DNA of 64,000 bases from Parcubacteria group bacterium (GTDB lineage: Bacteria > Patescibacteriota > Minisyncoccia > Moranbacterales > UBA11712). Below the pieces are notes generated by a model. That model did no database searches, had not been told where the DNA came from, and saw only the letters and a program-made list of their open reading frames with translations. A program made the position numbers and the translations under genes. Shown here piece after piece: positions 1-56,302 of the stretch; the first letter of the stretch is position 1, and the number at the start of each line of letters is the position of its first letter. The stretch covers positions 70,355 to 134,354 of the forward strand of contig JBAZXV010000004.1 of assembly GCA_041659685.1 (NCBI GenBank). Reading direction: 5' to 3'.

Positions 1-642
1 GATGATGAAGCGGCGAAACCGATTTTGGATCTTATTGCCGCTCTTGATGAAAAAATTCCGGATCCGGTTCGTGATGTGGATAAGCCATTTATGATGCCTA
101 TCGAAGATATTTTTTCCATTGAAGGCCGTGGAACAGTGGTGACTGGAAGAATCGAAAGAGGAGTAGTAAATATCAACGAGGAAGTTGAAATTGTTGGAAT
201 CAGACCGACAACCAAAACTATTGTCACGGGAATTGAAATGTTTAACAAGACCCTTGATAAAGGCCAGGCTGGCGACAACGCCGGAGTCCTTCTTCGCGGA
301 ACAAAAAAAGAAGATGTGGAAAGAGGACAAGTTCTCGCAAAACCCGGATCAATCACTCCTCACACCGAATTTGAAGGGGAAATTTATATTCTCACCAAAG
401 AAGAAGGCGGAAGACACACCCCGTTTTTCAAAGGATACAAGCCGCAGTTTTATATCCGAACGACCGATGTTACCGGCGACGTTACTATTCCGGAAGGAAC
501 AGAAATGGTTATGCCTGGTGACACTGTCAATCTCGGCGTAAAACTTATGGCACCTGTAGCCATGGAAGAAGGAATGAGATTTGCGATCCGTGAAGGCGGA
601 AAAACAGTCGGAGCTGGAGTCGTCACAAAAATCGTTAAGTAA
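1..642 (+). CDS. tuf: Elongation factor Tu, C-terminal part (5' end outside window)
   Basis: Frame-1 translation from nt 1 gives the EF-Tu domain II/III sequence (…[18 protein letters not shown]…[17 protein letters not shown]). It sits directly upstream of rpsJ, as in the str/S10 region. Confidence 0.95.
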
Positions 643-1368: not shown

Positions 1369-1938
1369 ATGGCCAAGTTTATATTCGGAAAAAAGCTCGG
1401 AATGAGCACTATATATGATGAAAAGCAAGGGGCGCTGAATGTCACCCTGGTTCAGTGTGATCCAAATACGGTGTCTCAGGTCAGAACCGCTGAGAAAGAC
1501 GGATACGAAGCAGTTCAGGCCGGACTGCCGAATCCCAAAGCCAAGGGAAAATTTTCAAAGATAAGAGAATTTAAGAGCGAAATTAAAGACATTAAAGCCG
1601 GTGACGAGCTCAATATTGATCAGTTTGAAATCGGGAATAAAGTGAAGGTCTCCGGAATCACCAAGGCCAAGGGATTTCAGGGAGTGGTAAAGCGCCACGG
1701 TTTCAAGGGATCTCCAAAATCTCACGGTCACAAGCATGACCTTCGCGCACCAGGTTCAATTGGAGCGACTTACCCCGAGCATGTCATCAAAGGAAAAAGA
1801 ATGGCCGGACGGATGGGGGGAAAAAGAGCTTCCTCTGTTAATTTAAAAATAGTGGATATCGATAAAGATAATAATATTTTATTTCTCAAGGGAGCTGTTC
1901 CGGGAGTAAGGGGAAGAATTGTCGAGATAACGGCATAA
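1369..1938 (+). CDS. rplC: 50S ribosomal protein L3
   Basis: L3 family sequence (MAKFIFGKKLGMSTIYDE…GKRMAGRMGG…). Position after rpsJ. Confidence 0.95.
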   Translation: MAKFIFGKKLGMSTIYDEKQGALNVTLVQCDPNTVSQVRTAEKDGYEAVQAGLPNPKAKGKFSKIREFKSEIKDIKAGDELNIDQFEIGNKVKVSGITKAKGFQGVVKRHGFKGSPKSHGHKHDLRAPGSIGATYPEHVIKGKRMAGRMGGKRASSVNLKIVDIDKDNNILFLKGAVPGVRGRIVEITA

Positions 1939-7418: not shown

Positions 7419-7961
7419 ATGAATAATTTACTGAAAAAATATAATAAGGAAGTCGTTCCCAAGTTCAAGGAAAAATTTGAGGAAAGAAATATTTTGTCGA
7501 TCCCGCGAATTTCCAAAGTCGTCCTCAATTGCGGACTTGGAAAATATCTTAAGGAAAAAGAAGCAGTTGACGAAATTGTTCAGGGACTTCGGGATATTTC
7601 CGGACAGATGCCTGTCCTTACCAAGGCTAAGAAGTCGATTTCCGGATTCAAAATTCGCCAGGGACAGGAAGTGGGGGTTGTTGTGACTCTTCGCGGAGAA
7701 AGAATGTGGAGTTTTCTGGACAGGCTTATCAGTTCTGCCCTCCCCCGAATCAGGGACTTCCGAGGAATTGATCCGAAGAATTTCGATAAAACCGGAAATT
7801 TGAATCTGGCAGTCAAAGAACATACTGTGTTTCCGGAAATCATGGCGGAAAATGCAAAGAATATTTTCAGTTTTCAAGTTACGGTTGTTACGACGGCAAA
7901 AAAGAGAGAAGAGGGGATAGAAATAATTAAGATGTTGAGATTTCCTATTAAAAGCGAATAA
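7419..7961 (+). CDS. rplE: 50S ribosomal protein L5
   Basis: [20 protein letters not shown]… matches the L5 N-terminus. The ATG at 7419, just after the L24 stop, is preferred over the overlapping ATG at 7395. Confidence 0.93.
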
Positions 7962-7972
7962 TTAAAAGAATT

Positions 7973-8158
7973 ATGGCAAAAACATCAGTTCGGGCCAGGG
8001 CTCAAAAAAAACCGAAGTTTTCCACACGTATTGTCCGGCGTTGCTGGAAATGCGGAAGAAAACGCGGATATATGCGTGATTTTGAGCTGTGCCGCATTTG
8101 TTTTCGGGAACTGGCGAGCAACGGAGAAATTCCCGGAGTAAAGAAATCAAGCTGGTAA
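7973..8158 (+). CDS. rpsN: 30S ribosomal protein S14, zinc-binding type Z (61 aa)
   Basis: …[24 protein letters not shown]…; C4 zinc-ribbon S14. Confidence 0.93.
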
Positions 8159-38107: not shown

Positions 38108-38136
38108 TTGATTTTTTCTTCCGGAGACAGTATATT
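38108..38136 (+). promoter_or_regulatory. Consensus promoter TTGATT-N17-TATATT (family member 1), upstream of the patatin gene
   Basis: TTGATTttttcttccggagacagTATATTTTAG; shares an extended AGTATATTTTA block with three other sites. Confidence 0.5.
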
Positions 38137-38209
38137 TTAGTTAGGGAAGTGAAATTTTTCTGACTTAAAAAATCGGAAAAAATAAAAAATACAGCGAGGA
38201 GGACATTCG

Positions 38210-39883: not shown

Positions 39884-39912
39884 TTGATTTATTCGCTTGA
39901 AAATAGTATATT
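39884..39912 (+). promoter_or_regulatory. Consensus promoter TTGATT-N17-TATATT (family member 2)
   Basis: TTGATTtattcgcttgaaaatagTATATTTTA; ~100 nt upstream of the 40011 gene. Confidence 0.5.
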
Positions 39913-40010
39913 TTAAATAGATGCAGGACGAGGTTGAATCTATGCCGAAGAAGTATTGCATGGTAATATGAGATTAAGTAAGATTCTTTTAATTTATTAA
40001 CAAAAAAACA

Positions 40011-40744: not shown

Positions 40745-40773
40745 TTGATTTTTCGGCCTGGAAATAGTATATT
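40745..40773 (+). promoter_or_regulatory. Consensus promoter TTGATT-N17-TATATT (family member 3)
   Basis: TTGATTtttcggcctggaaatagTATATTTTAG. A terminator-like hairpin lies just upstream (~40716-40745). Confidence 0.45.
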
Positions 40774-41053
40774 TTAGGTATAAATACGTATTTTGTTACG
40801 TAGCGCCGCGAAGCATAATTCAGCATTTTCCCACGGCCGTGTAATTTTGCTAAATTGTAAAACATCAAGTTAAAAGCTGTTTTCTGCTCGGTATTGGACG
40901 CTGACGGGAAACGCGTCCAAATCGTCCCCGGCAAATCCGTGGCGGAGGTTGAAGGGAGGATGTCTTAGGTTCCTTATTCACAAAAAAAATTCCTCCAATC
41001 CAGTTGTCTGGATAACTGGATAATCCGCTAAAATCCCGCCGGTAATAATCAAT

Positions 41054-41728
41054 GTGCAAACAATTATGAAAACATATCTCAAAGATTTTGAAAAAATGGC
41101 GAAGAGGGAGATTGCGTATATTCCTCTCGGCACTTTGGAATGGCACGGGAATCATCTGCCGATTGAAACGGATTATCTCGTCGCGGTGAAATTATGCGAG
41201 GGATTGGCAAAGAAGAAACCCGGTTATATTCTTCCGCCGATATATCTCGGAACGGATAAGCATAAATTTGTCAAAGGGCAAAAGTTTGTCGGCATGGATC
41301 GGCATCTTGGGAAAAAACTGCCCGGCAATTTATATTATCTAGAGCCAGCCCTTTTTGAAAAAATGCTGACGGGGCTCGTGAAAAATCTCATTGTTCACGG
41401 ATTCAAGAGAATATACGGCATCGCAGCCCACACCGGTGGCGGACAAATGGCGGCGCTCGCCAGAGTCGCGAAGAAGATTCCAGAGCTCAAAATCATAAAT
41501 CCTTGGGAAAATATTAGCATCGATATGCAGCACGCTGAAGAAAACGAAACTTCTGTTTTTTGGGCCTGCTATCCCGAAGAGGAAAAAATAAGCCGAAAAA
41601 TGAAAATTCCTCTCTCGGACGATTGTTTCCGATTTTACGGCCGCGATGTGCGGAGGAGAGCGTCGTTAAAGCTAGGAAAAAAAATGCTAAACGAAGCGTT
41701 GAGAGATTGTTTGGAGGAAATAAAATAA
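41054..41728 (+). CDS. Creatininase-family amidohydrolase
   Basis: …IAYIPLGTLEWHGNHLPIETD… matches the creatininase-family metal-binding motif. Confidence 0.7.
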   Translation: MQTIMKTYLKDFEKMAKREIAYIPLGTLEWHGNHLPIETDYLVAVKLCEGLAKKKPGYILPPIYLGTDKHKFVKGQKFVGMDRHLGKKLPGNLYYLEPALFEKMLTGLVKNLIVHGFKRIYGIAAHTGGGQMAALARVAKKIPELKIINPWENISIDMQHAEENETSVFWACYPEEEKISRKMKIPLSDDCFRFYGRDVRRRASLKLGKKMLNEALRDCLEEIK

Positions 41729-41746
41729 ATAATTCGGAATTATATA

Positions 41747-42241
41747 ATGTCAAAGCTGAATATCGTTGATGAAGACGACAACGTAATCGGAATAGAAGAT
41801 CGCAAAAAAGCGAAAAAAGAGAGCTTCTATCGCGTTTCGGCCCTTTGGGTCACCAATTCGCGCGGGGAAATTTTGCTCGCTCGCCGGCATCGAAGCAAAA
41901 CGCACGATCCTTTGAAATGGGGTCCGGCGGTTTCGGGGACTGTCGAAGCGGGGGAAAGTTATGAAGAAAATATTTTGAAAGAAGCGGAAGAAGAATTGGG
42001 TCTCAAGAATATCCATCCAAAAATCGGGCCGAAAATAAAAATGGAAGTTGAATATCATTATTTTGTCCAGTGGTTCACTTTGGGGATTGAAAAGGATGCC
42101 AGCGATTTCGAGATACAAGAAGACGAAGTCGTAGAGATTAAATGGTTTCCAAAAAAAGATTTAATTTCTGAATTGCAAAACAGTTCTGAAAACTTCACGC
42201 CGGGATTGCGCGCGGTCAGTAAATTATTTTTAGGGGAATAA
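41747..42241 (+). CDS. NUDIX hydrolase
   Basis: Nudix box GPAVSGTVEAGESYEENILKEAEEELGL. Confidence 0.8.
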   Translation: MSKLNIVDEDDNVIGIEDRKKAKKESFYRVSALWVTNSRGEILLARRHRSKTHDPLKWGPAVSGTVEAGESYEENILKEAEEELGLKNIHPKIGPKIKMEVEYHYFVQWFTLGIEKDASDFEIQEDEVVEIKWFPKKDLISELQNSSENFTPGLRAVSKLFLGE

Positions 42242-44517: not shown

Positions 44518-44546
44518 TTCTGCCGCATTGATTTTTCTCATTGAAA
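44518..44546 (+). promoter_or_regulatory. Consensus promoter TTGATT-N17-TATATT (family member 4), upstream of the csaA-like gene
   Basis: TTGATTtttctcattgaaaatagTATATTTAAC. Confidence 0.5.
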
Positions 44547-44566
44547 ATAGTATATTTAACTTATAA

Positions 44567-44914
44567 ATGCACAAAACTATGGCAACTATTGAAGATTTTC
44601 ACAAGATGGACATTAGGGTTGGGAAAATCATTGAAGTCGAGGATTTTCCGGAAGCCCGAAAACCGATGTATAAGATCACGATCGATTTCGGCTCGGAGAT
44701 TGGCGTAAAAAAATCGTCGGTCCAGCTGGTTACGCTCTATAAAAAAGAAGAGCTCATGGGCAAAGTTATTTTGGGCGTCGTTAATTTCCCGCCCCGCCAA
44801 ATTGGTCCGTTTCTTTCCGAAGTCCTCACCCTCGGCGTCCCGGACAAGGAAGACAATTGCGTCCTCATTGTCCCCGAAAAAGACACGGCGGAAATCGGCG
44901 GGAGGTTATTTTAA
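44567..44914 (+). CDS. tRNA-binding protein (CsaA/Trbp111-like OB-fold domain)
   Basis: …DIRVGKIIEVEDFPEARKPMYKITIDFGSE…; the start may be the ATG at 44579. Confidence 0.75.
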   Translation: MHKTMATIEDFHKMDIRVGKIIEVEDFPEARKPMYKITIDFGSEIGVKKSSVQLVTLYKKEELMGKVILGVVNFPPRQIGPFLSEVLTLGVPDKEDNCVLIVPEKDTAEIGGRLF

Positions 44915-51953: not shown

Positions 51954-52712
51954 ATGGAAATCAGCCTCAAAAACAAAAATATTCTCGTGACGGGCGCCAG
52001 CCGGGGAATTGGGAAGGCAATTGCGGAAGAAACGGGAAAATCCGGAGCGCGAGTGGCGGTTCACTATGGAAAAAATAAGGCGGAAGCTGAAAAAATAGCC
52101 AAGGAAATCGGGAATAATTCACAAGCTTTCGGAGCAGACCTTGAAAAACCGGAGGAATGCAAAAATCTTTTCGAAAAAGTTGTAAAGGATTTTAGGCGCA
52201 TTGACGTTCTTGTGAATAATGCTGGTGTCGCAATATTATCTCCGCTCGACGGCGACAAATGGGTTGAGGCTTGGGATCGGACGATGGCAATCAATCTGCG
52301 ATCCGTTGGAATTCTTGCGCGTCTGGCTATTCAGCATTTTCGCAAAATAGGCGGAGGAAAGATTATTAATATAGCATCCCGCGCCGCATATCGGGGGGAT
52401 ACGGCGGAATACTTAGCCTACGCCGCTTCCAAGGGCGGAGTGGTTTCGCTCAGCAAATCCATCGCCAGGGATTTTGGAAAAGACAATATTGTGTGTTTTG
52501 CGCTGGCGCCGGGCTGGGTGCGGACTGACATGGCAAAGGAAGCTATGGATCAGGATGAATATGGCGAAGAGTTCGTTATGCAGGGGATCGCGCTCAATCG
52601 TCTCACTGAGCCGCGTGACATTGCGCCCATTGCCGCGCTTCTCGCGAGCGGGCTTGCGGATCACGCCACCGGAACGACGATTGACATCAACGCGGCGAGC
52701 TATGTCCACTAA
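51954..52712 (+). CDS. SDR-family oxidoreductase
   Basis: TGASRGIGKAIA, NNAG, …YAASKGG…. Confidence 0.85.
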   Translation: MEISLKNKNILVTGASRGIGKAIAEETGKSGARVAVHYGKNKAEAEKIAKEIGNNSQAFGADLEKPEECKNLFEKVVKDFRRIDVLVNNAGVAILSPLDGDKWVEAWDRTMAINLRSVGILARLAIQHFRKIGGGKIINIASRAAYRGDTAEYLAYAASKGGVVSLSKSIARDFGKDNIVCFALAPGWVRTDMAKEAMDQDEYGEEFVMQGIALNRLTEPRDIAPIAALLASGLADHATGTTIDINAASYVH

Positions 52713-52793
52713 TATTCTCCGAAATATCATTGCGACGAATACTTTCTCAACTCGGAAATACAGTCTTGTTATTGGCTACGGGGTAATGCTGTA

Positions 52794-52831
52794 TATTTCT
52801 TATCAGTAAACTAGTTTACTGATAAGAAATA
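52794..52831. promoter_or_regulatory. 38-bp near-perfect palindrome (core TATCAGTAAACTAGTTTACTGATA), copy 1, immediately upstream of the YerC-like gene
   Basis: TATTTCTTATCAGTAAACTAGTTTACTGATAAGAAATA is exactly self-complementary over 38 nt. Confidence 0.6.
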
Positions 52832-52856
52832 AAAAGTAATATTTAAGAGAAATATT

Positions 52857-53291
52857 ATGGCCGGTAAAGTGAAATACAATCAACTGACTGATTTTCAGAA
52901 AAAGAAATATCTGGGAGAATTTTATGATATGATTTCGCTTCTTGGGAGCAGGGAAGAAGTAAAAAAGTTTTTCAAGGATCTTCTGACCTTGAGTGAGGTC
53001 GTCATGATCTCTCGGAGAATTCAGATTGCGAAAATGCTTCTGGAAGGGAAAAGTTTCGAGGATATAAAAACAAAAATGAAAGTCGGGAGCAATACGATCA
53101 GTCATGTCGAAAGATGGCTCAACAACGGATTTGGGGGATATAAAGAGATAATTAAAAGGCACGAGAAAGATAGGGCGATGAAAAATGAGGAAATCGAAAA
53201 AAGGATGTCGGCAACTCCGTTTTCCTGGAAAGCGATCAAAAGAAAATACCCATTGCATTTTCTACTACTCAACGCTCTTGATAATAAATAA
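52857..53291 (+). CDS. TrpR-like / YerC-YecD family DNA-binding protein
   Basis: …LTLSEVVMISRRIQIAKMLLEGKSFEDIKTKMKVGSNTISHVERWL… matches the YerC/YecD (Trp-repressor-like) HTH. Confidence 0.65.
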   Translation: MAGKVKYNQLTDFQKKKYLGEFYDMISLLGSREEVKKFFKDLLTLSEVVMISRRIQIAKMLLEGKSFEDIKTKMKVGSNTISHVERWLNNGFGGYKEIIKRHEKDRAMKNEEIEKRMSATPFSWKAIKRKYPLHFLLLNALDNK

Positions 53292-53294
53292 CAT

Positions 53295-53324
53295 TTTTAT
53301 CAGTAAACTAGTTTACTGATAAAA
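53295..53324. promoter_or_regulatory. 30-bp perfect palindrome, copy 2 of the same core, between the YerC-like gene and the downstream MTase gene
   Basis: TTTTATCAGTAAACTAGTTTACTGATAAAA; the 24-bp core is identical to copy 1. Confidence 0.6.
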
Positions 53325-53354
53325 GAAAATATAAGTGATAACCTGCTTGCTAAA

Positions 53355-54176
53355 ATGTCGCGAGAGATAAAAAACAGGGATTCAGTTAAGAAAAAATATA
53401 TTAAATATTTAAACACCGTGCACGGGGCGAAGAAGTATAATGATTACAAGAAAATTCTCTACGGCCGGCCGGACTCGCTGGTCATTGAGCTTTTCCGGCG
53501 GATCTATCCTAATATTAAAGACCAAAAATCGTTGAAAATTTTGGATGTCGGCGGGGGAGATGGAAAGAGGTTGAAACTCCTATTCGATCTATTGTCAAAA
53601 AAGGGAATTGATGCTTCCGCAACGCTGGTTGAACCTTCGTCTGCTTTTGTCACGGAGCTCAAAAAATCCCTAAAATCCGCGAAAAAATATAATATTAGAG
53701 TTGCGAAAAGAAAATTCGAGGACTATTTTGAAAAAGGCGAGTATGATTTGATTTTATTCATTCACAGCATTTTTACCTTTAAAGGTTCGGTCTATCTCCA
53801 AAAAGCCAAAAAAATGCTGGCGAAAAACGGACTACTTATCGTAATGTCAAACGATCCGAAATCTTTCATTGCGGGGCTGAAAAAAATAACAGATGCGAAA
53901 TTTAGATCTGAGAGAAAAGAAATCGGATCAGTTCTCAGGGATCTGATAAATCATGGGTTTAAGCATAAAATTGAAAAATTCGATACAATTTTTAGAGACG
54001 CCACTAAGGACGATAAGATATCAGCTTCGGGAAAAAAGATTCTCGAATGGATATCTCTTTCGGATTATAAAGATATTAGTGGTAATATAAAAAGCAAGGC
54101 ATTATCATATTTCAAAGGAAAGACTATAAATAATCAGGTGAAGGAAAAAGAGATATTAATAAAATCAAGACAATGA
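53355..54176 (+). CDS. Class I SAM-dependent methyltransferase
   Basis: Motif I ILDVGGGDGKRL. Confidence 0.7.
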   Translation: MSREIKNRDSVKKKYIKYLNTVHGAKKYNDYKKILYGRPDSLVIELFRRIYPNIKDQKSLKILDVGGGDGKRLKLLFDLLSKKGIDASATLVEPSSAFVTELKKSLKSAKKYNIRVAKRKFEDYFEKGEYDLILFIHSIFTFKGSVYLQKAKKMLAKNGLLIVMSNDPKSFIAGLKKITDAKFRSERKEIGSVLRDLINHGFKHKIEKFDTIFRDATKDDKISASGKKILEWISLSDYKDISGNIKSKALSYFKGKTINNQVKEKEILIKSRQ

Positions 54177-54268
54177 TAAAAAAGTCACCTATTCGAATTG
54201 CAATGCTCTTATATGTGCATATATGAGAGTGAAAATATTTTGAGATAAAGAATAATTTTAATATTTTT

Positions 54269-54877
54269 ATGCTTAAAGCCGTTATTTTCGATTTCGACGG
54301 GGTGATTGCGGATACTTTCCAGCTGAATGTCAATATCTCCCGAGAGCAGAAGAAAAAATTTACCCTGAAAGAATTCCGCGATCATCACAACGGCAATGTT
54401 TGGGAAAAGCCGGTTATTCAATATACGAAAAAGAACTTGAAATATGGCTTTGCTGAATATCATTCTCGTCTGGATGGAAGCCTCCTGTTTCCCTTAAAAG
54501 ATCAGATCAAAAAACTCGCAAAAAAACACAAGCTGTTTATCATTTCCAGCAGTCCGGAGAGAAGCATTGAAAAATTTTTGAAGCTTGTAAATATTTCAAA
54601 ATACTTTGAAAAAGTTCTGGGATATTACGCGCATCAGTCAAAAGTTGAGAAATTTAAGATGATTTTTGCGAAGTATAAAGTGAAATCCGAAGAATGCGTC
54701 TTTGTGACTGATTCCTTGGGAGACTTGCGGGAAGCGAAAAAAGTTGAAGTGCCGACGATTGCCGTCACCTGGGGGTATCACGGAAAAACGAGGCTCAAAA
54801 AGGGATCGCCGGACATCATGATCCACAATTTCAAAGATCTTACGGGCGCCGTAAACAAAATAAGAATAACCTTATAA
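54269..54877 (+). CDS. HAD-superfamily hydrolase (β-phosphoglucomutase/phosphatase-like)
   Basis: Motif I VIFDFDGVIADT; …VTDSLGDL… motif IV. Confidence 0.75.
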   Translation: MLKAVIFDFDGVIADTFQLNVNISREQKKKFTLKEFRDHHNGNVWEKPVIQYTKKNLKYGFAEYHSRLDGSLLFPLKDQIKKLAKKHKLFIISSSPERSIEKFLKLVNISKYFEKVLGYYAHQSKVEKFKMIFAKYKVKSEECVFVTDSLGDLREAKKVEVPTIAVTWGYHGKTRLKKGSPDIMIHNFKDLTGAVNKIRITL

Positions 54878-54901
54878 TATTCGTGCCAGCAAACTAGTCC
54901 A

Positions 54902-56302
54902 ATGATGCGATTTTCATTGCTGTTGAGAATGAATTATTTGAGAGAGAAATCTATTATGGAAAAAGCCGAAGAAAAAAAATATCCCGCCAAACACCCCCTC
55001 GAAATTTGGAAAAGCCGGGAAGTAACAGATCTTCTCATTGAATTCTTCGGCGTGAATTTCAAAAAAGCGGGGCTTCCGGAAAAAATGGCGCGGGATCTTA
55101 TTCTTACGGCTTTCAAAAACCGAAAAACAGCGGATCGGGAAGGGCTAAGAAGGGTGTGTGAAAAAATAATGCTCGAAGCGAAAGACCGGGCGAAAAACCC
55201 GCCGGATGAAATTGATCCCATTGAGCTTTTTGACCTTAATGAAACGGAAATGTTTCTCGATATCGGAGCGAACAAGCTTGCGACAATCAATTATCTTGCC
55301 AAAAAACATAAAAATATAAAAAAATTAATCGGCATCGACACGATTCCGCAGAGAAGCAACTTTCACGAACCGCAAAAGAGTTCTTATTTTCAAGTTAGCC
55401 CGAAGGCAAAATCTTTTCCGATCAAAAAAGAATCGGTTGATTTCATCAATTTGCAATTCGTTTTTCATCATTTTCCCGATGCCGGGTCGATAAAGAGAAT
55501 GCTTTCGATTTGCAGAAAAATTCTGAAACCGGGCGGGATGATTCTCCTTTGGGAGGAATCATTCACGAAAAAATTTGATCCGGAAATGATAAAAATAAAC
55601 AGGCGGCTGGGAATCAAGACGGACAAAATTATTACGGAAAAGTTTTATTCTTTAAACGAAAAAAAACGCTGGGAATTCATTATCGCGAATGATTGGCTCA
55701 TCAATGTCAGCAGTTCGCACATGCCTTGGACCGGCCAATACAGAACTTGGCCGGAATGGGAGAAACTGATGTATGACGCCGGGTTCTATTTCAAAAAAAG
55801 CTATAATTTTGGCCTTCGCGCGAGCGGCCGCCTGAAGCAGGGAGCGCATATGATTGGGATGTTCAAAAAACTGAAAATCTTGAACGGATCGAATGTTTTT
55901 GTGAAAAATAGGAAATTAAAAAAGATTCTGTTTGTTCTTCGAGACAACAAGCCGAATATTCTTTACCCGGGAAAATGGGGAAATTTTGGCGGAGGGGTGG
56001 AAGAAGGAGAGTCTCCGCTTGAGGCAATTAAAAGAGAAATCAAAGAAGAGTCGAATATAAAAATTTCGAATTTTAAGCTTCTGGGAAAAGAAAAAGTCAC
56101 TCATATCTTGTGCGGTGAAAAATTTCCGCGGACTAGCCACTATTACATTGCTGAAACGGACGCAAAGCTTGGCGAGACAAAAATTTTCGAAGGGCAAAGG
56201 GCAAGATATTTCACGCTCAAAGAAATTCTTGCGAATAAAAATCTTGGCCCGGTAGCCCGAAAGATGATAAAAAAATATTATAAAGAAATAAGCAGTTTCT
56301 AG
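54902..56302 (+). CDS. Two-domain protein: N-terminal class I SAM-methyltransferase-like domain fused to a C-terminal NUDIX hydrolase
   Basis: MTase post-II motif …ILKPGGMILLWEE…; Nudix box …GKWGNFGGGVEEGESPLEAIKREIKEESN…. The start may be at 54959. Confidence 0.65.
   Translation: MMRFSLLLRMNYLREKSIMEKAEEKKYPAKHPLEIWKSREVTDLLIEFFGVNFKKAGLPEKMARDLILTAFKNRKTADREGLRRVCEKIMLEAKDRAKNPPDEIDPIELFDLNETEMFLDIGANKLATINYLAKKHKNIKKLIGIDTIPQRSNFHEPQKSSYFQVSPKAKSFPIKKESVDFINLQFVFHHFPDAGSIKRMLSICRKILKPGGMILLWEESFTKKFDPEMIKINRRLGIKTDKIITEKFYSLNEKKRWEFIIANDWLINVSSSHMPWTGQYRTWPEWEKLMYDAGFYFKKSYNFGLRASGRLKQGAHMIGMFKKLKILNGSNVFVKNRKLKKILFVLRDNKPNILYPGKWGNFGGGVEEGESPLEAIKREIKEESNIKISNFKLLGKEKVTHILCGEKFPRTSHYYIAETDAKLGETKIFEGQRARYFTLKEILANKNLGPVARKMIKKYYKEISSF

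Follow-up and report, generated by a model that had tools for sequence, protein, structure and literature searches.

YerC of Bacillus subtilis is HisR, a repressor of the TrpR family that binds to 20-bp palindromes (Ashniev et al. 2022, PMC9413887). HisR sites have been predicted across the Firmicutes, at the hisR genes themselves among others, DNA binding has been validated for one species, and both palindromic operator binding and autoregulation are known for the YerC/TrpR protein family (PMC9413887). Here we describe a gene of this family within a stretch of 64,000 nucleotides from a Parcubacteria group bacterium (GenBank assembly GCA_041659685.1, contig JBAZXV010000004.1, positions 70,355–134,354 of the forward strand; hereafter the window), which is enclosed by two copies of one palindrome, O1 ahead of its start codon and O2 directly behind its stop codon. 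We suggest that O1 and O2 are probably the cognate operators for the product of the enclosed gene, a YerC/HisR-type (TrpR-fold) repressor, and that this autoregulatory cassette, O1-gene-O2, is conserved throughout a long form of the family that is specific to the Candidate Phyla Radiation (CPR). To our knowledge, no operator has been described after the stop codon of trpR. Binding of TrpR to its operators includes binding as tandem dimers (PDB 1TRO, 1TRR).

A palindrome pair encloses the yerC-like gene

Within the 64-kb window, the 24-mer TATCAGTAAACTAGTTTACTGATA is present in exactly two copies even if up to three mismatches are tolerated, and none of 100 shuffles of the window contained a match, the chance expectation being 0. 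Both copies are the cores of longer sites, with O1 forming a perfect palindrome of 38 bp, or 42 bp if one mismatch is allowed, and O2 a perfect palindrome of 30 bp (Table 1). O1 is located 25–56 nt before the ATG of the yerC-like gene, with its centre 44–45 nt 5' of this codon, and the TAA of the gene is separated from O2 by 4–7 nt. An earlier note on this DNA, made from the letters without database searches, had reported the palindrome pair around the YerC gene, and reading of the sequence together with a pattern search confirmed its coordinates, lengths and distances throughout. The sites span ~28 bp, and their core, with the halves CAGTAAACT and AGTTTACTG, is centred on AACTAGTT, with AGT-N2-ACT recurring at 8 bp; many sites read as AGTATACT repeated, giving an internal repeat of 8 bp. 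O1 and O2 are flanked by a T-run on the 5' side and an A-run on the 3' side, and no his genes lie close by.

The regulator is a long-form member of the YerC/YecD family

Both its profile matches and its fold place the 144-aa protein in the YerC/YecD family (TIGR02531/PF01371). It is recognized by the Pfam model Trp_repressor (PF01371; E = 7e-19, 68.1 bits for a cut-off of 27) and by TIGR02531 yecD_yerC (67.8 bits, above the cut-off of 42.2), and a profile search of solved structures retrieves the YerC/HisR-like entries 3FRW, 3KOR and 3G1C at ~1e-16. The AlphaFold2 (AF2) model is of medium confidence, with a predicted local distance difference test (pLDDT) score of 74 overall and 78–90 across residues 10–100. 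With this model, Foldseek returns 3FRW, 3G1C and 3KOR at the top, followed by Escherichia coli TrpR, all with a probability of 1.0. The score with the TrpR model TIGR01321 is 23.5 bits, below the cut-off of 67.25, and on the grounds of this score, its length, its context and its motif the protein is ruled out as an orthologue of HisR or TrpR.

The CPR long form comprises ~140 aa and carries an N-terminal GKVKY arm as well as a C-terminal extension of ~40 aa that terminates in an invariant KYPLHFLL, the extension being modelled with low confidence in the AF2 monomer (pLDDT 53–69). Among 1.84 billion cluster representatives (50% identity), 1820 match the protein with E <= 1e-3, of which 368 reach E <= 1e-10. 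The top 150 cluster matches are mostly 135–190 aa long, with the query aligned over its full length. Judged by the names of the organisms in which its homologs occur, the bacterium is Moranbacteria-like and belongs to the CPR/Patescibacteria.

The bracket is conserved with locus-specific palindromes

We collected 80 metagenomic loci with homologs that are 40–75% identical to the window protein and searched for dyad symmetry within 160–200 nt upstream and 110–150 nt downstream of each homolog gene. A palindrome pair flanks most of these genes, with the centre of the upstream copy typically 25–55 nt 5' of the ATG and that of the downstream copy 11–30 nt 3' of the stop codon; as rounded figures for the family, the palindrome lies ~35–45 nt ahead of the ATG and ~15–25 nt behind the stop codon. 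By a fixed strict criterion, 44 of the 70 testable yerC-like genes are bracketed, compared with 3 of ~420 control open reading frames (ORFs) that were taken from these loci and have a minimum length of 90 aa; the control count was initially five, from which two ORFs were removed as yerC-like genes missing from the homolog list. The earlier note had proposed an operator-regulator-operator module with a cognate palindrome and had recommended looking for its conservation at orthologous loci, and this proposal gains support from a bracket that recurs with locus-specific palindromes at the majority of homologs.

The palindrome sequence varies from locus to locus, for example CAGTATACT/AGTATACTG, CCGTATTCT/AGTATACGG, CCCATGTTCT/AGAACATGGG, CTACCATACTCC/AGAGTATGGTAG and ACTATCATA/TATGATAGT (left and right halves). 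The two copies at the same gene agree: two good palindromes are present at 51 loci, and at 47 of these the copies have 14 or more of the 20 core bases in common, with complete identity at 23. In a profile over 47 loci, dyad symmetry amounts to 80–100% up to position 14 from the centre and falls to background beyond, and the functional unit is therefore ~28 bp. The Moranbacteria genome RBG_13_45_13 (GCA_001784675.1) encodes four paralogs with three types of palindrome, CCCGTAAACC, TTTAGTATTGT and TTCAGTATACT, each type flanking its own gene. In addition, loci L015 and L021 have syntenic flanks, yet differ in both their palindromes and their recognition helices.

When one genome per species was scanned, matches to the 20-nt core were found in three metagenome-assembled genomes (MAGs). 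In the ‘Falkowbacteria’ MAG ELA601, two identical 20-nt cores bracket a 143-aa homolog of only 40–43% identity, and four further exact cores lie elsewhere, giving 6 exact cores in the whole MAG. No bracketing palindromes were present at three Firmicutes loci with the short form of yerC/hisR in the yerA-yerB-yerC-pcrB-pcrA context, which links the bracket to the CPR long form.

Several loci depart from the simple arrangement. Two yerC-like genes, in L042 and L046, are interrupted by an in-frame stop codon and retain the upstream palindrome; these may represent pseudogenes, sequencing errors or recoding. The closest relatives of the window cassette (L088, L089 and L090) carry an extra palindrome of a slightly different type, TGTTACAGTAAACT/AGTATACTGTAACA, ~45 nt upstream of O1, which is not found in the window. 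L093 and L094, both from GCA_001784675.1, contain paralogous clusters encoding a DUF87/TrwB-type ATPase, DUF5663 and PMT_2 glycosyltransferases, each beside a yerC-like cassette and both cassettes with one palindrome type, and appear to reflect a recent duplication of a regulated block.

Upstream copies coincide with promoter-like signals

The upstream copies appear to overlap or abut promoter elements in two arrangements. Of 62 upstream copies, 14 have a TTG at a distance of exactly 21 nt to the left of the centre, as do 0 of the 64 downstream copies (Fisher p = 9e-6); with a spacer of 17 nt, this places the −10 element (TATACT) within the right arm of the upstream palindrome. At other loci, a TATAAT-like hexamer is found at −22/−21, just left of many upstream copies. 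The window follows the hexamer-left type with TATATT, and the identical-core site of ELA601 (L003) has TATATT in the same register together with a −35 element, TTGCCG, at a spacing of 16 nt. In both arrangements, bound protein would block RNA polymerase, and the apparent overlap with promoter elements fits autorepression. Elsewhere in the window, a 41-nt motif, TTGATTTTT...GAAAATAGTATATTTTA, is present in four copies (Table 1), reads as a strong promoter with a −35 element, 17 nt and a −10 element (TATATT), and is probably the housekeeping promoter consensus of the organism.

We suggest that a protein dimer binds the symmetric duplex and that, by analogy with the tandem binding of TrpR, possibly two dimers are accommodated with an offset of 8 bp. 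At O1, the bound protein would occlude RNA polymerase or block promoter escape and thereby establish negative autoregulation. O2 would provide a second site for the same protein, which would most likely serve either for cooperative looping or for a roadblock or insulator formed by protein at the 3' boundary. In the former case, O1 and O2 may act together across a ~500-bp loop (the O1-O2 spacing across loci is 471–542 bp), possibly mediated by the subfamily-specific hydrophobic C-terminal helix; in the latter, the roadblock would isolate the regulator gene from transcription reading out or in. Further copies within a genome would then constitute a small regulon.

Further sites suggest a small regulon

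Several genes, Nudix, RuvX and pyrF among them, have an extra copy of the palindrome ~45–50 nt ahead of their ATG. At L062, L068 and L070 (Table 1), a gene that does not encode the regulator likewise lies between matching 28-bp palindromes; around the L062 gene the sequence is TACTTTCATACTGT/ACAGTATGAAAGTA, unlike the palindrome of the yerC-like gene that this contig also carries. The earlier note had held that palindromes at many unrelated loci away from any YerC-like gene would indicate a generic repeat; such copies do exist, but they are few, and because a regulon is expected to look so, they do not discriminate between the two.

The window also contains a single copy of a palindrome of another type, ATCCAGTTGTCTGGATAACTGGAT, for which 0 copies are expected by chance. 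It is nearly identical to the palindrome flanking a yerC-like paralog in L015, TAATCCAGTTATCT/GGATAACTGGATTA, and precedes by 44–56 nt a creatininase-family gene, which is followed by a Nudix gene. A profile search of the six-frame translation of the window revealed no second yerC paralog or remnant near this site, so that ATCCAGTTGTCTGGATAACTGGAT is probably a regulon site for a paralog encoded elsewhere in the genome.

In ELA601, unlike palindromes with the cores CCCGTAAAC, TCAGTAAAC and TCAGTATAC are arrayed 50–85 nt apart within single spacers, with three in L003 and two in L007 (Table 1). The L007 pair lies between convergent genes and between two canonical terminators, downstream of TTGACT, and this region could be a small regulated transcription unit.

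The downstream copy and alternative explanations for the bracket

The earlier note had assigned the downstream copy to the promoter region of the accessory enzyme genes that follow it, and it is conceivable, if unlikely, that O2 exists as the operator of the next operon, the bracket being a by-product of a regulator that lies upstream of its targets. The geometry within the window is compatible with this: the centre of O2 is 45–46 nt 5' of the methyltransferase ATG, similar to the distance between O1 and its gene, and a TAnnnT hexamer, TAACAT, which opens with the stop codon, lies at −21 to −16, in the same register as TATATT at O1. Moreover, HAD, Nudix or deoxyribosyltransferase genes are located just past O2 in clade relatives, with the HAD and Nudix genes co-oriented at 47–76 nt, and the extra sites ~45 nt before other genes demonstrate that this geometry is in use. 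In the family as a whole, however, 21 of 55 loci (38%) have a convergent next gene, and O2 is present in 91% of convergent compared with 79% of co-oriented cases, with equivalent symmetry (12.3/14 and 11.9/14, respectively). Co-oriented next genes have their ATG anywhere from 14 to 497 nt beyond O2, whereas the spacing between stop codon and O2 varies little, and the −35 signal of the upstream copies is absent from the downstream copies. Since O2 is kept when the next gene is convergent and at a narrowly constrained distance from the stop codon, it is part of the regulator's own cassette, anchored to its stop codon. A role as promoter operator for the accessory genes is plausible in the window, where the geometry of O2 toward the methyltransferase/HAD/Nudix genes equals that of O1 toward yerC and O2 thus probably gates these genes too, but it is not the general reason for the site; the assignment made in the earlier note therefore fits locally and does not extend to the family.

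Two further alternatives were considered. The palindromes could mainly function at the RNA level, as hairpins at either end (5' and 3') of the regulator mRNA, serving as stabilizers, processing sites or terminators without a U-tract, with no need for a protein. Both copies do fold stably as RNA (−18.7 and −12 kcal/mol, z = −7 and −5), the downstream copy occupies the usual position of a terminator, two copies in ELA601 are extended and have T-runs behind them, and the symmetry of the arms is compensated. Yet mismatches between the arms show no excess of G:U-compatible over A:C pairs on the sense strand (22 and 23, respectively), which argues against a sense-strand RNA hairpin, and the AT-rich stems with a T-run 5' and an A-run 3' are the reverse of a terminator. 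With the −35 element at −21, the transcript would start past the upstream palindrome, and the existence of paralog-specific palindromes would be left unexplained. We therefore regard this as highly improbable. An intrinsic terminator is rejected by the negative terminator scan of 52500–53600 and by the wrong flank polarity; elsewhere in the same genome, canonical GC-rich terminators with A-run and T-run are observed. The only known RNA families detected in the window are three tRNAs. A somewhat less remote, though still very unlikely, alternative is a selfish element, either similar to repetitive extragenic palindromes (REPs) with their associated tyrosine transposases (RAYTs) or of a cassette type, in which the palindromes are hairpin ends or repeat copies that the protein propagates or maintains, with solitary copies representing footprints or satellites and not operators. 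REP-RAYT systems consist of a small gene flanked by its own palindrome, with paralog-specific types in one genome and dispersed extragenic copies, a layout that is mirrored here. The arrays of two or three unlike palindrome types in one spacer and the single sites with compensated, perfect stems are also consistent with such an element. Furthermore, homology between the window and L090 (94% at the amino acid and 85% at the nucleotide level) is confined to 52795–53327, that is from palindrome to palindrome, and the neighbouring genes differ on both sides in L090; by comparison of gene lists, the 91%-identical P0002 contig also has other neighbours. However, Pfam, NCBIfam and Foldseek identified no HUH, tyrosine or DDE catalytic domain in the protein, only the TrpR-type helix-turn-helix, and Pfam no transposase domain in the window cassette. 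The copy number is low both in the window and in ELA601, synteny is maintained in most close pairs (L019/20/21, L033/40, L062/66 and L071/82), no target-site duplication is seen on comparing 52786–52794 with 53328–53336, and the promoter signals are restricted to the upstream copies. Neither homologs nor core matches were found in viral contigs, by which a phage or viral origin is rejected. The suggestion in the earlier note that the two copies are the inverted termini of a tiny mobile cassette is thus not borne out, the coincidence of the L090 homology with the palindromes being the one residual point in its favour.

Several observations weigh against O1 and O2 being operators of the intervening repressor. 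The recognition helix (residues 74–88) shows no correlation with the operator beyond shared phylogeny in a partial Mantel analysis controlling for the rest of the protein (r = −0.03, p = 0.67), and per-residue mutual information between protein and operator is dominated by phylogeny; cis co-inheritance could therefore explain the pairing of protein and palindrome. Perfect symmetry is preserved even at positions that vary between sister sites, with 28 symmetric double changes compared with 33 single-arm changes, and some sites extend to 38–40 bp, such as the perfect 40-bp copy in L001, which a model based on protein binding only does not predict. Compensated symmetry could arise through template-switch ‘quasipalindrome correction’, a known mutational process, instead of through function. 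Some solitary copies lie between convergent genes or next to terminators and not in promoters. A simple consensus scan of the + strand returned no full sigma-70 −35/−10 promoter for the window yerC-like gene. The helical phasing of the O1-O2 distance is marginal (Rayleigh p ~0.03 at 10–10.7 bp, uncorrected), and an operator right after a stop codon, retained with a convergent next gene, has no standard function. A broader reading, which we consider doubtful, is that the palindromes belong to a general ‘gene-bracketing’ system of looping or roadblocks or, more radically, to REP-like propagation by the protein. In such a gene-bracketing system, one TrpR-fold protein would act on identical sites at the 5' and 3' boundaries of transcription units, its own gene always and some targets too (L062, L068 and L070); loops or roadblocks would start, stop and insulate transcription in tiny genomes, and diversification of the family would have produced many orthogonal pairs of protein and palindrome.

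Genomic neighbourhood and significance of the cassette

The regulator gene is surrounded in the window by SDR, methyltransferase, HAD and Nudix genes, as identified by Pfam. From ~52800 to 55000 the GC content dips, with the regulator cassette and the next two genes at 0.36–0.37 compared with 0.42–0.46 in the surroundings and the onset at O1, and this region resembles a variable island that encodes small ‘house-cleaning’ enzymes (Nudix, HAD, HIT, HD, creatininase-like). A partial core near 54889, which the earlier note had pointed out, does exist as the degenerate sequence CAGCAAACTAGTCCAATG, but it is weak: by our own estimate, ~0.25–0.5 matches of this grade are expected per 64 kb by chance, and the site is thus near chance level. 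For the methyltransferase-Nudix gene downstream of it, the ATG at 54956 may be the true start, judged by the homolog in L004.

Table 1. Positions of the predicted operators, the regulator gene and other features in the window and at related loci.
Feature	Locus	Position	Strand	Remarks
Candidate −10 hexamer TATATT	Window	52792..52797	+	Abuts left arm of O1, −21 to −16 from its centre; predicted from sequence
O1, predicted upstream operator	Window	52794..52831		Core 52801-52824; family-wide symmetric part (~28 bp) 52799-52826
YerC/YecD-type (TrpR-fold) regulator gene, 144 aa	Window	52857..53291	+	ORF, profiles, fold
O2, predicted downstream operator	Window	53295..53324		Core 53298-53321; perfect 30-bp palindrome, starts 4 nt past stop codon
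Accessory genes, co-oriented, possibly O2-controlled	Window	53355..56302	+	Pfam and NCBIfam
S-adenosylmethionine (SAM)-methyltransferase gene	Window	53355-54176	+	Pfam/NCBIfam
HAD hydrolase gene	Window	54269-54877	+	Pfam/NCBIfam
Methyltransferase-Nudix fusion gene	Window	54902 or 54956 to 56302	+	Pfam/NCBIfam
Degenerate possible third site CAGCAAACTAGTCCAATG	Window	54888..54905		14/18 core positions; 5' of methyltransferase-Nudix gene
Palindrome of other type, ATCCAGTTGTCTGGATAACTGGAT	Window	40998-41021		Single copy
Creatininase-family gene	Window	41054 or 41066 to 41728		
Nudix gene	Window	41747-42241		
41-nt promoter-like motif	Window	38108-38148, 39884-39924, 40745-40785, 44528-44568		Four copies
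Bracketed nucleotidyltransferase gene (NTP_transf_6)	L062	342-923		Matching palindromes on both sides
Bracketed SLT/SH3 protein gene	L068	2012-4213		Matching palindromes on both sides
Bracketed MFS transporter gene	L070	591-1715		Matching palindromes on both sides
Palindrome array of three	L003 (ELA601)	7795-7826, 7875-7906, 7960-7991		
Palindrome array of two	L007 (ELA601)	1714-1745, 1764-1795		
Interrupted yerC-like gene	L042	536-955		In-frame stop codon
Interrupted yerC-like gene	L046	2010-2465		In-frame stop codon
Extra palindrome upstream of O1	L088	9885-9912		
Extra palindrome upstream of O1	L089	9901-9924		
Extra palindrome upstream of O1	L090	~530-556		

Next to nothing is known of how CPR/Patescibacteria, which cannot be grown alone, control their transcription. 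The long form described here represents a diversified family of regulators, with at least 368 clusters (50% identity, E <= 1e-10), whose likely sites can be read from the flanking DNA. It thereby offers dozens of candidate protein/operator pairs for in vitro tests as well as a natural set of putatively orthogonal repressor/operator pairs, and makes regulon prediction in metagenome-assembled genomes possible. The predicted operator after the stop codon, for which the well-studied TrpR and HisR systems offer no counterpart, suggests looping or insulation by roadblocks as a design principle. What is new, as predicted from the sequences, is that the regulator gene has conserved ~28-bp operators at both ends, that the second of them immediately follows the stop codon, and that the long form has diversified, giving many protein/palindrome pairs and several paralogs in a genome; searchable literature yielded no description of CPR TrpR/YerC regulators or of such bracketing.

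Comparison with known systems

The cassette resembles REP/RAYT elements in that a small gene lies within its own palindromes, with paralog-specific families, dispersed copies and clusters of mixed type. It differs in lacking a HUH-Y1 nuclease, in having upstream copies that appear embedded in promoters, and in its very low copy number, since instead of tens to hundreds of copies per genome there are 2 in 64 kb of the window and 6 exact cores in ELA601. The transposase, target duplication and variable location expected of an insertion sequence or a miniature inverted-repeat transposable element were likewise not found at the window cassette, though its flanks and those of L090 differ on both sides. 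With looping repressors such as LacI (O1/O2), GalR (OE/OI) and the CI proteins of lambda and 186, the cassette shares the presence of two identical sites a few hundred bp apart, and the O1-O2 spacing is within looping range. The fold of these repressors is unrelated, however, and in the CPR cassette the sites enclose exactly the coding sequence of the regulator; looping is a prediction here, and the phasing is marginal.

E. coli TrpR has the same fold as the window protein (Foldseek probability 1.0), and its operator is similarly a palindrome centred on ACTAGT/CTAG with an 8-bp repeat, comparable to the repeated AGTATACT (TrpR motif according to PMC9413887). It differs in that the window protein scores below the TIGR01321 cut-off and that no trp genes are present at this locus. 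HisR belongs to the same family (TIGR02531/PF01371), provides with 3FRW, 3KOR and 3G1C the nearest structures, and likewise has palindromic sites, including predicted sites at its own gene. HisR is, however, ~100 aa long, recognizes the motif cacTTTA-N6-TAAAgtg, controls his genes and is encoded in the yerA-yerB-yerC-pcrB-pcrA context, whereas the CPR form has ~140 aa with extensions, ~28-bp sites on both sides of the gene, several paralogs and no his genes nearby. The window protein and its sites accordingly show neither the length of ~100 aa, nor the canonical or his context, nor the 20-bp motif of HisR. Overall, the comparison suggests that the O1-gene-O2 cassette would work like an autoregulated operator of the TrpR/HisR type.

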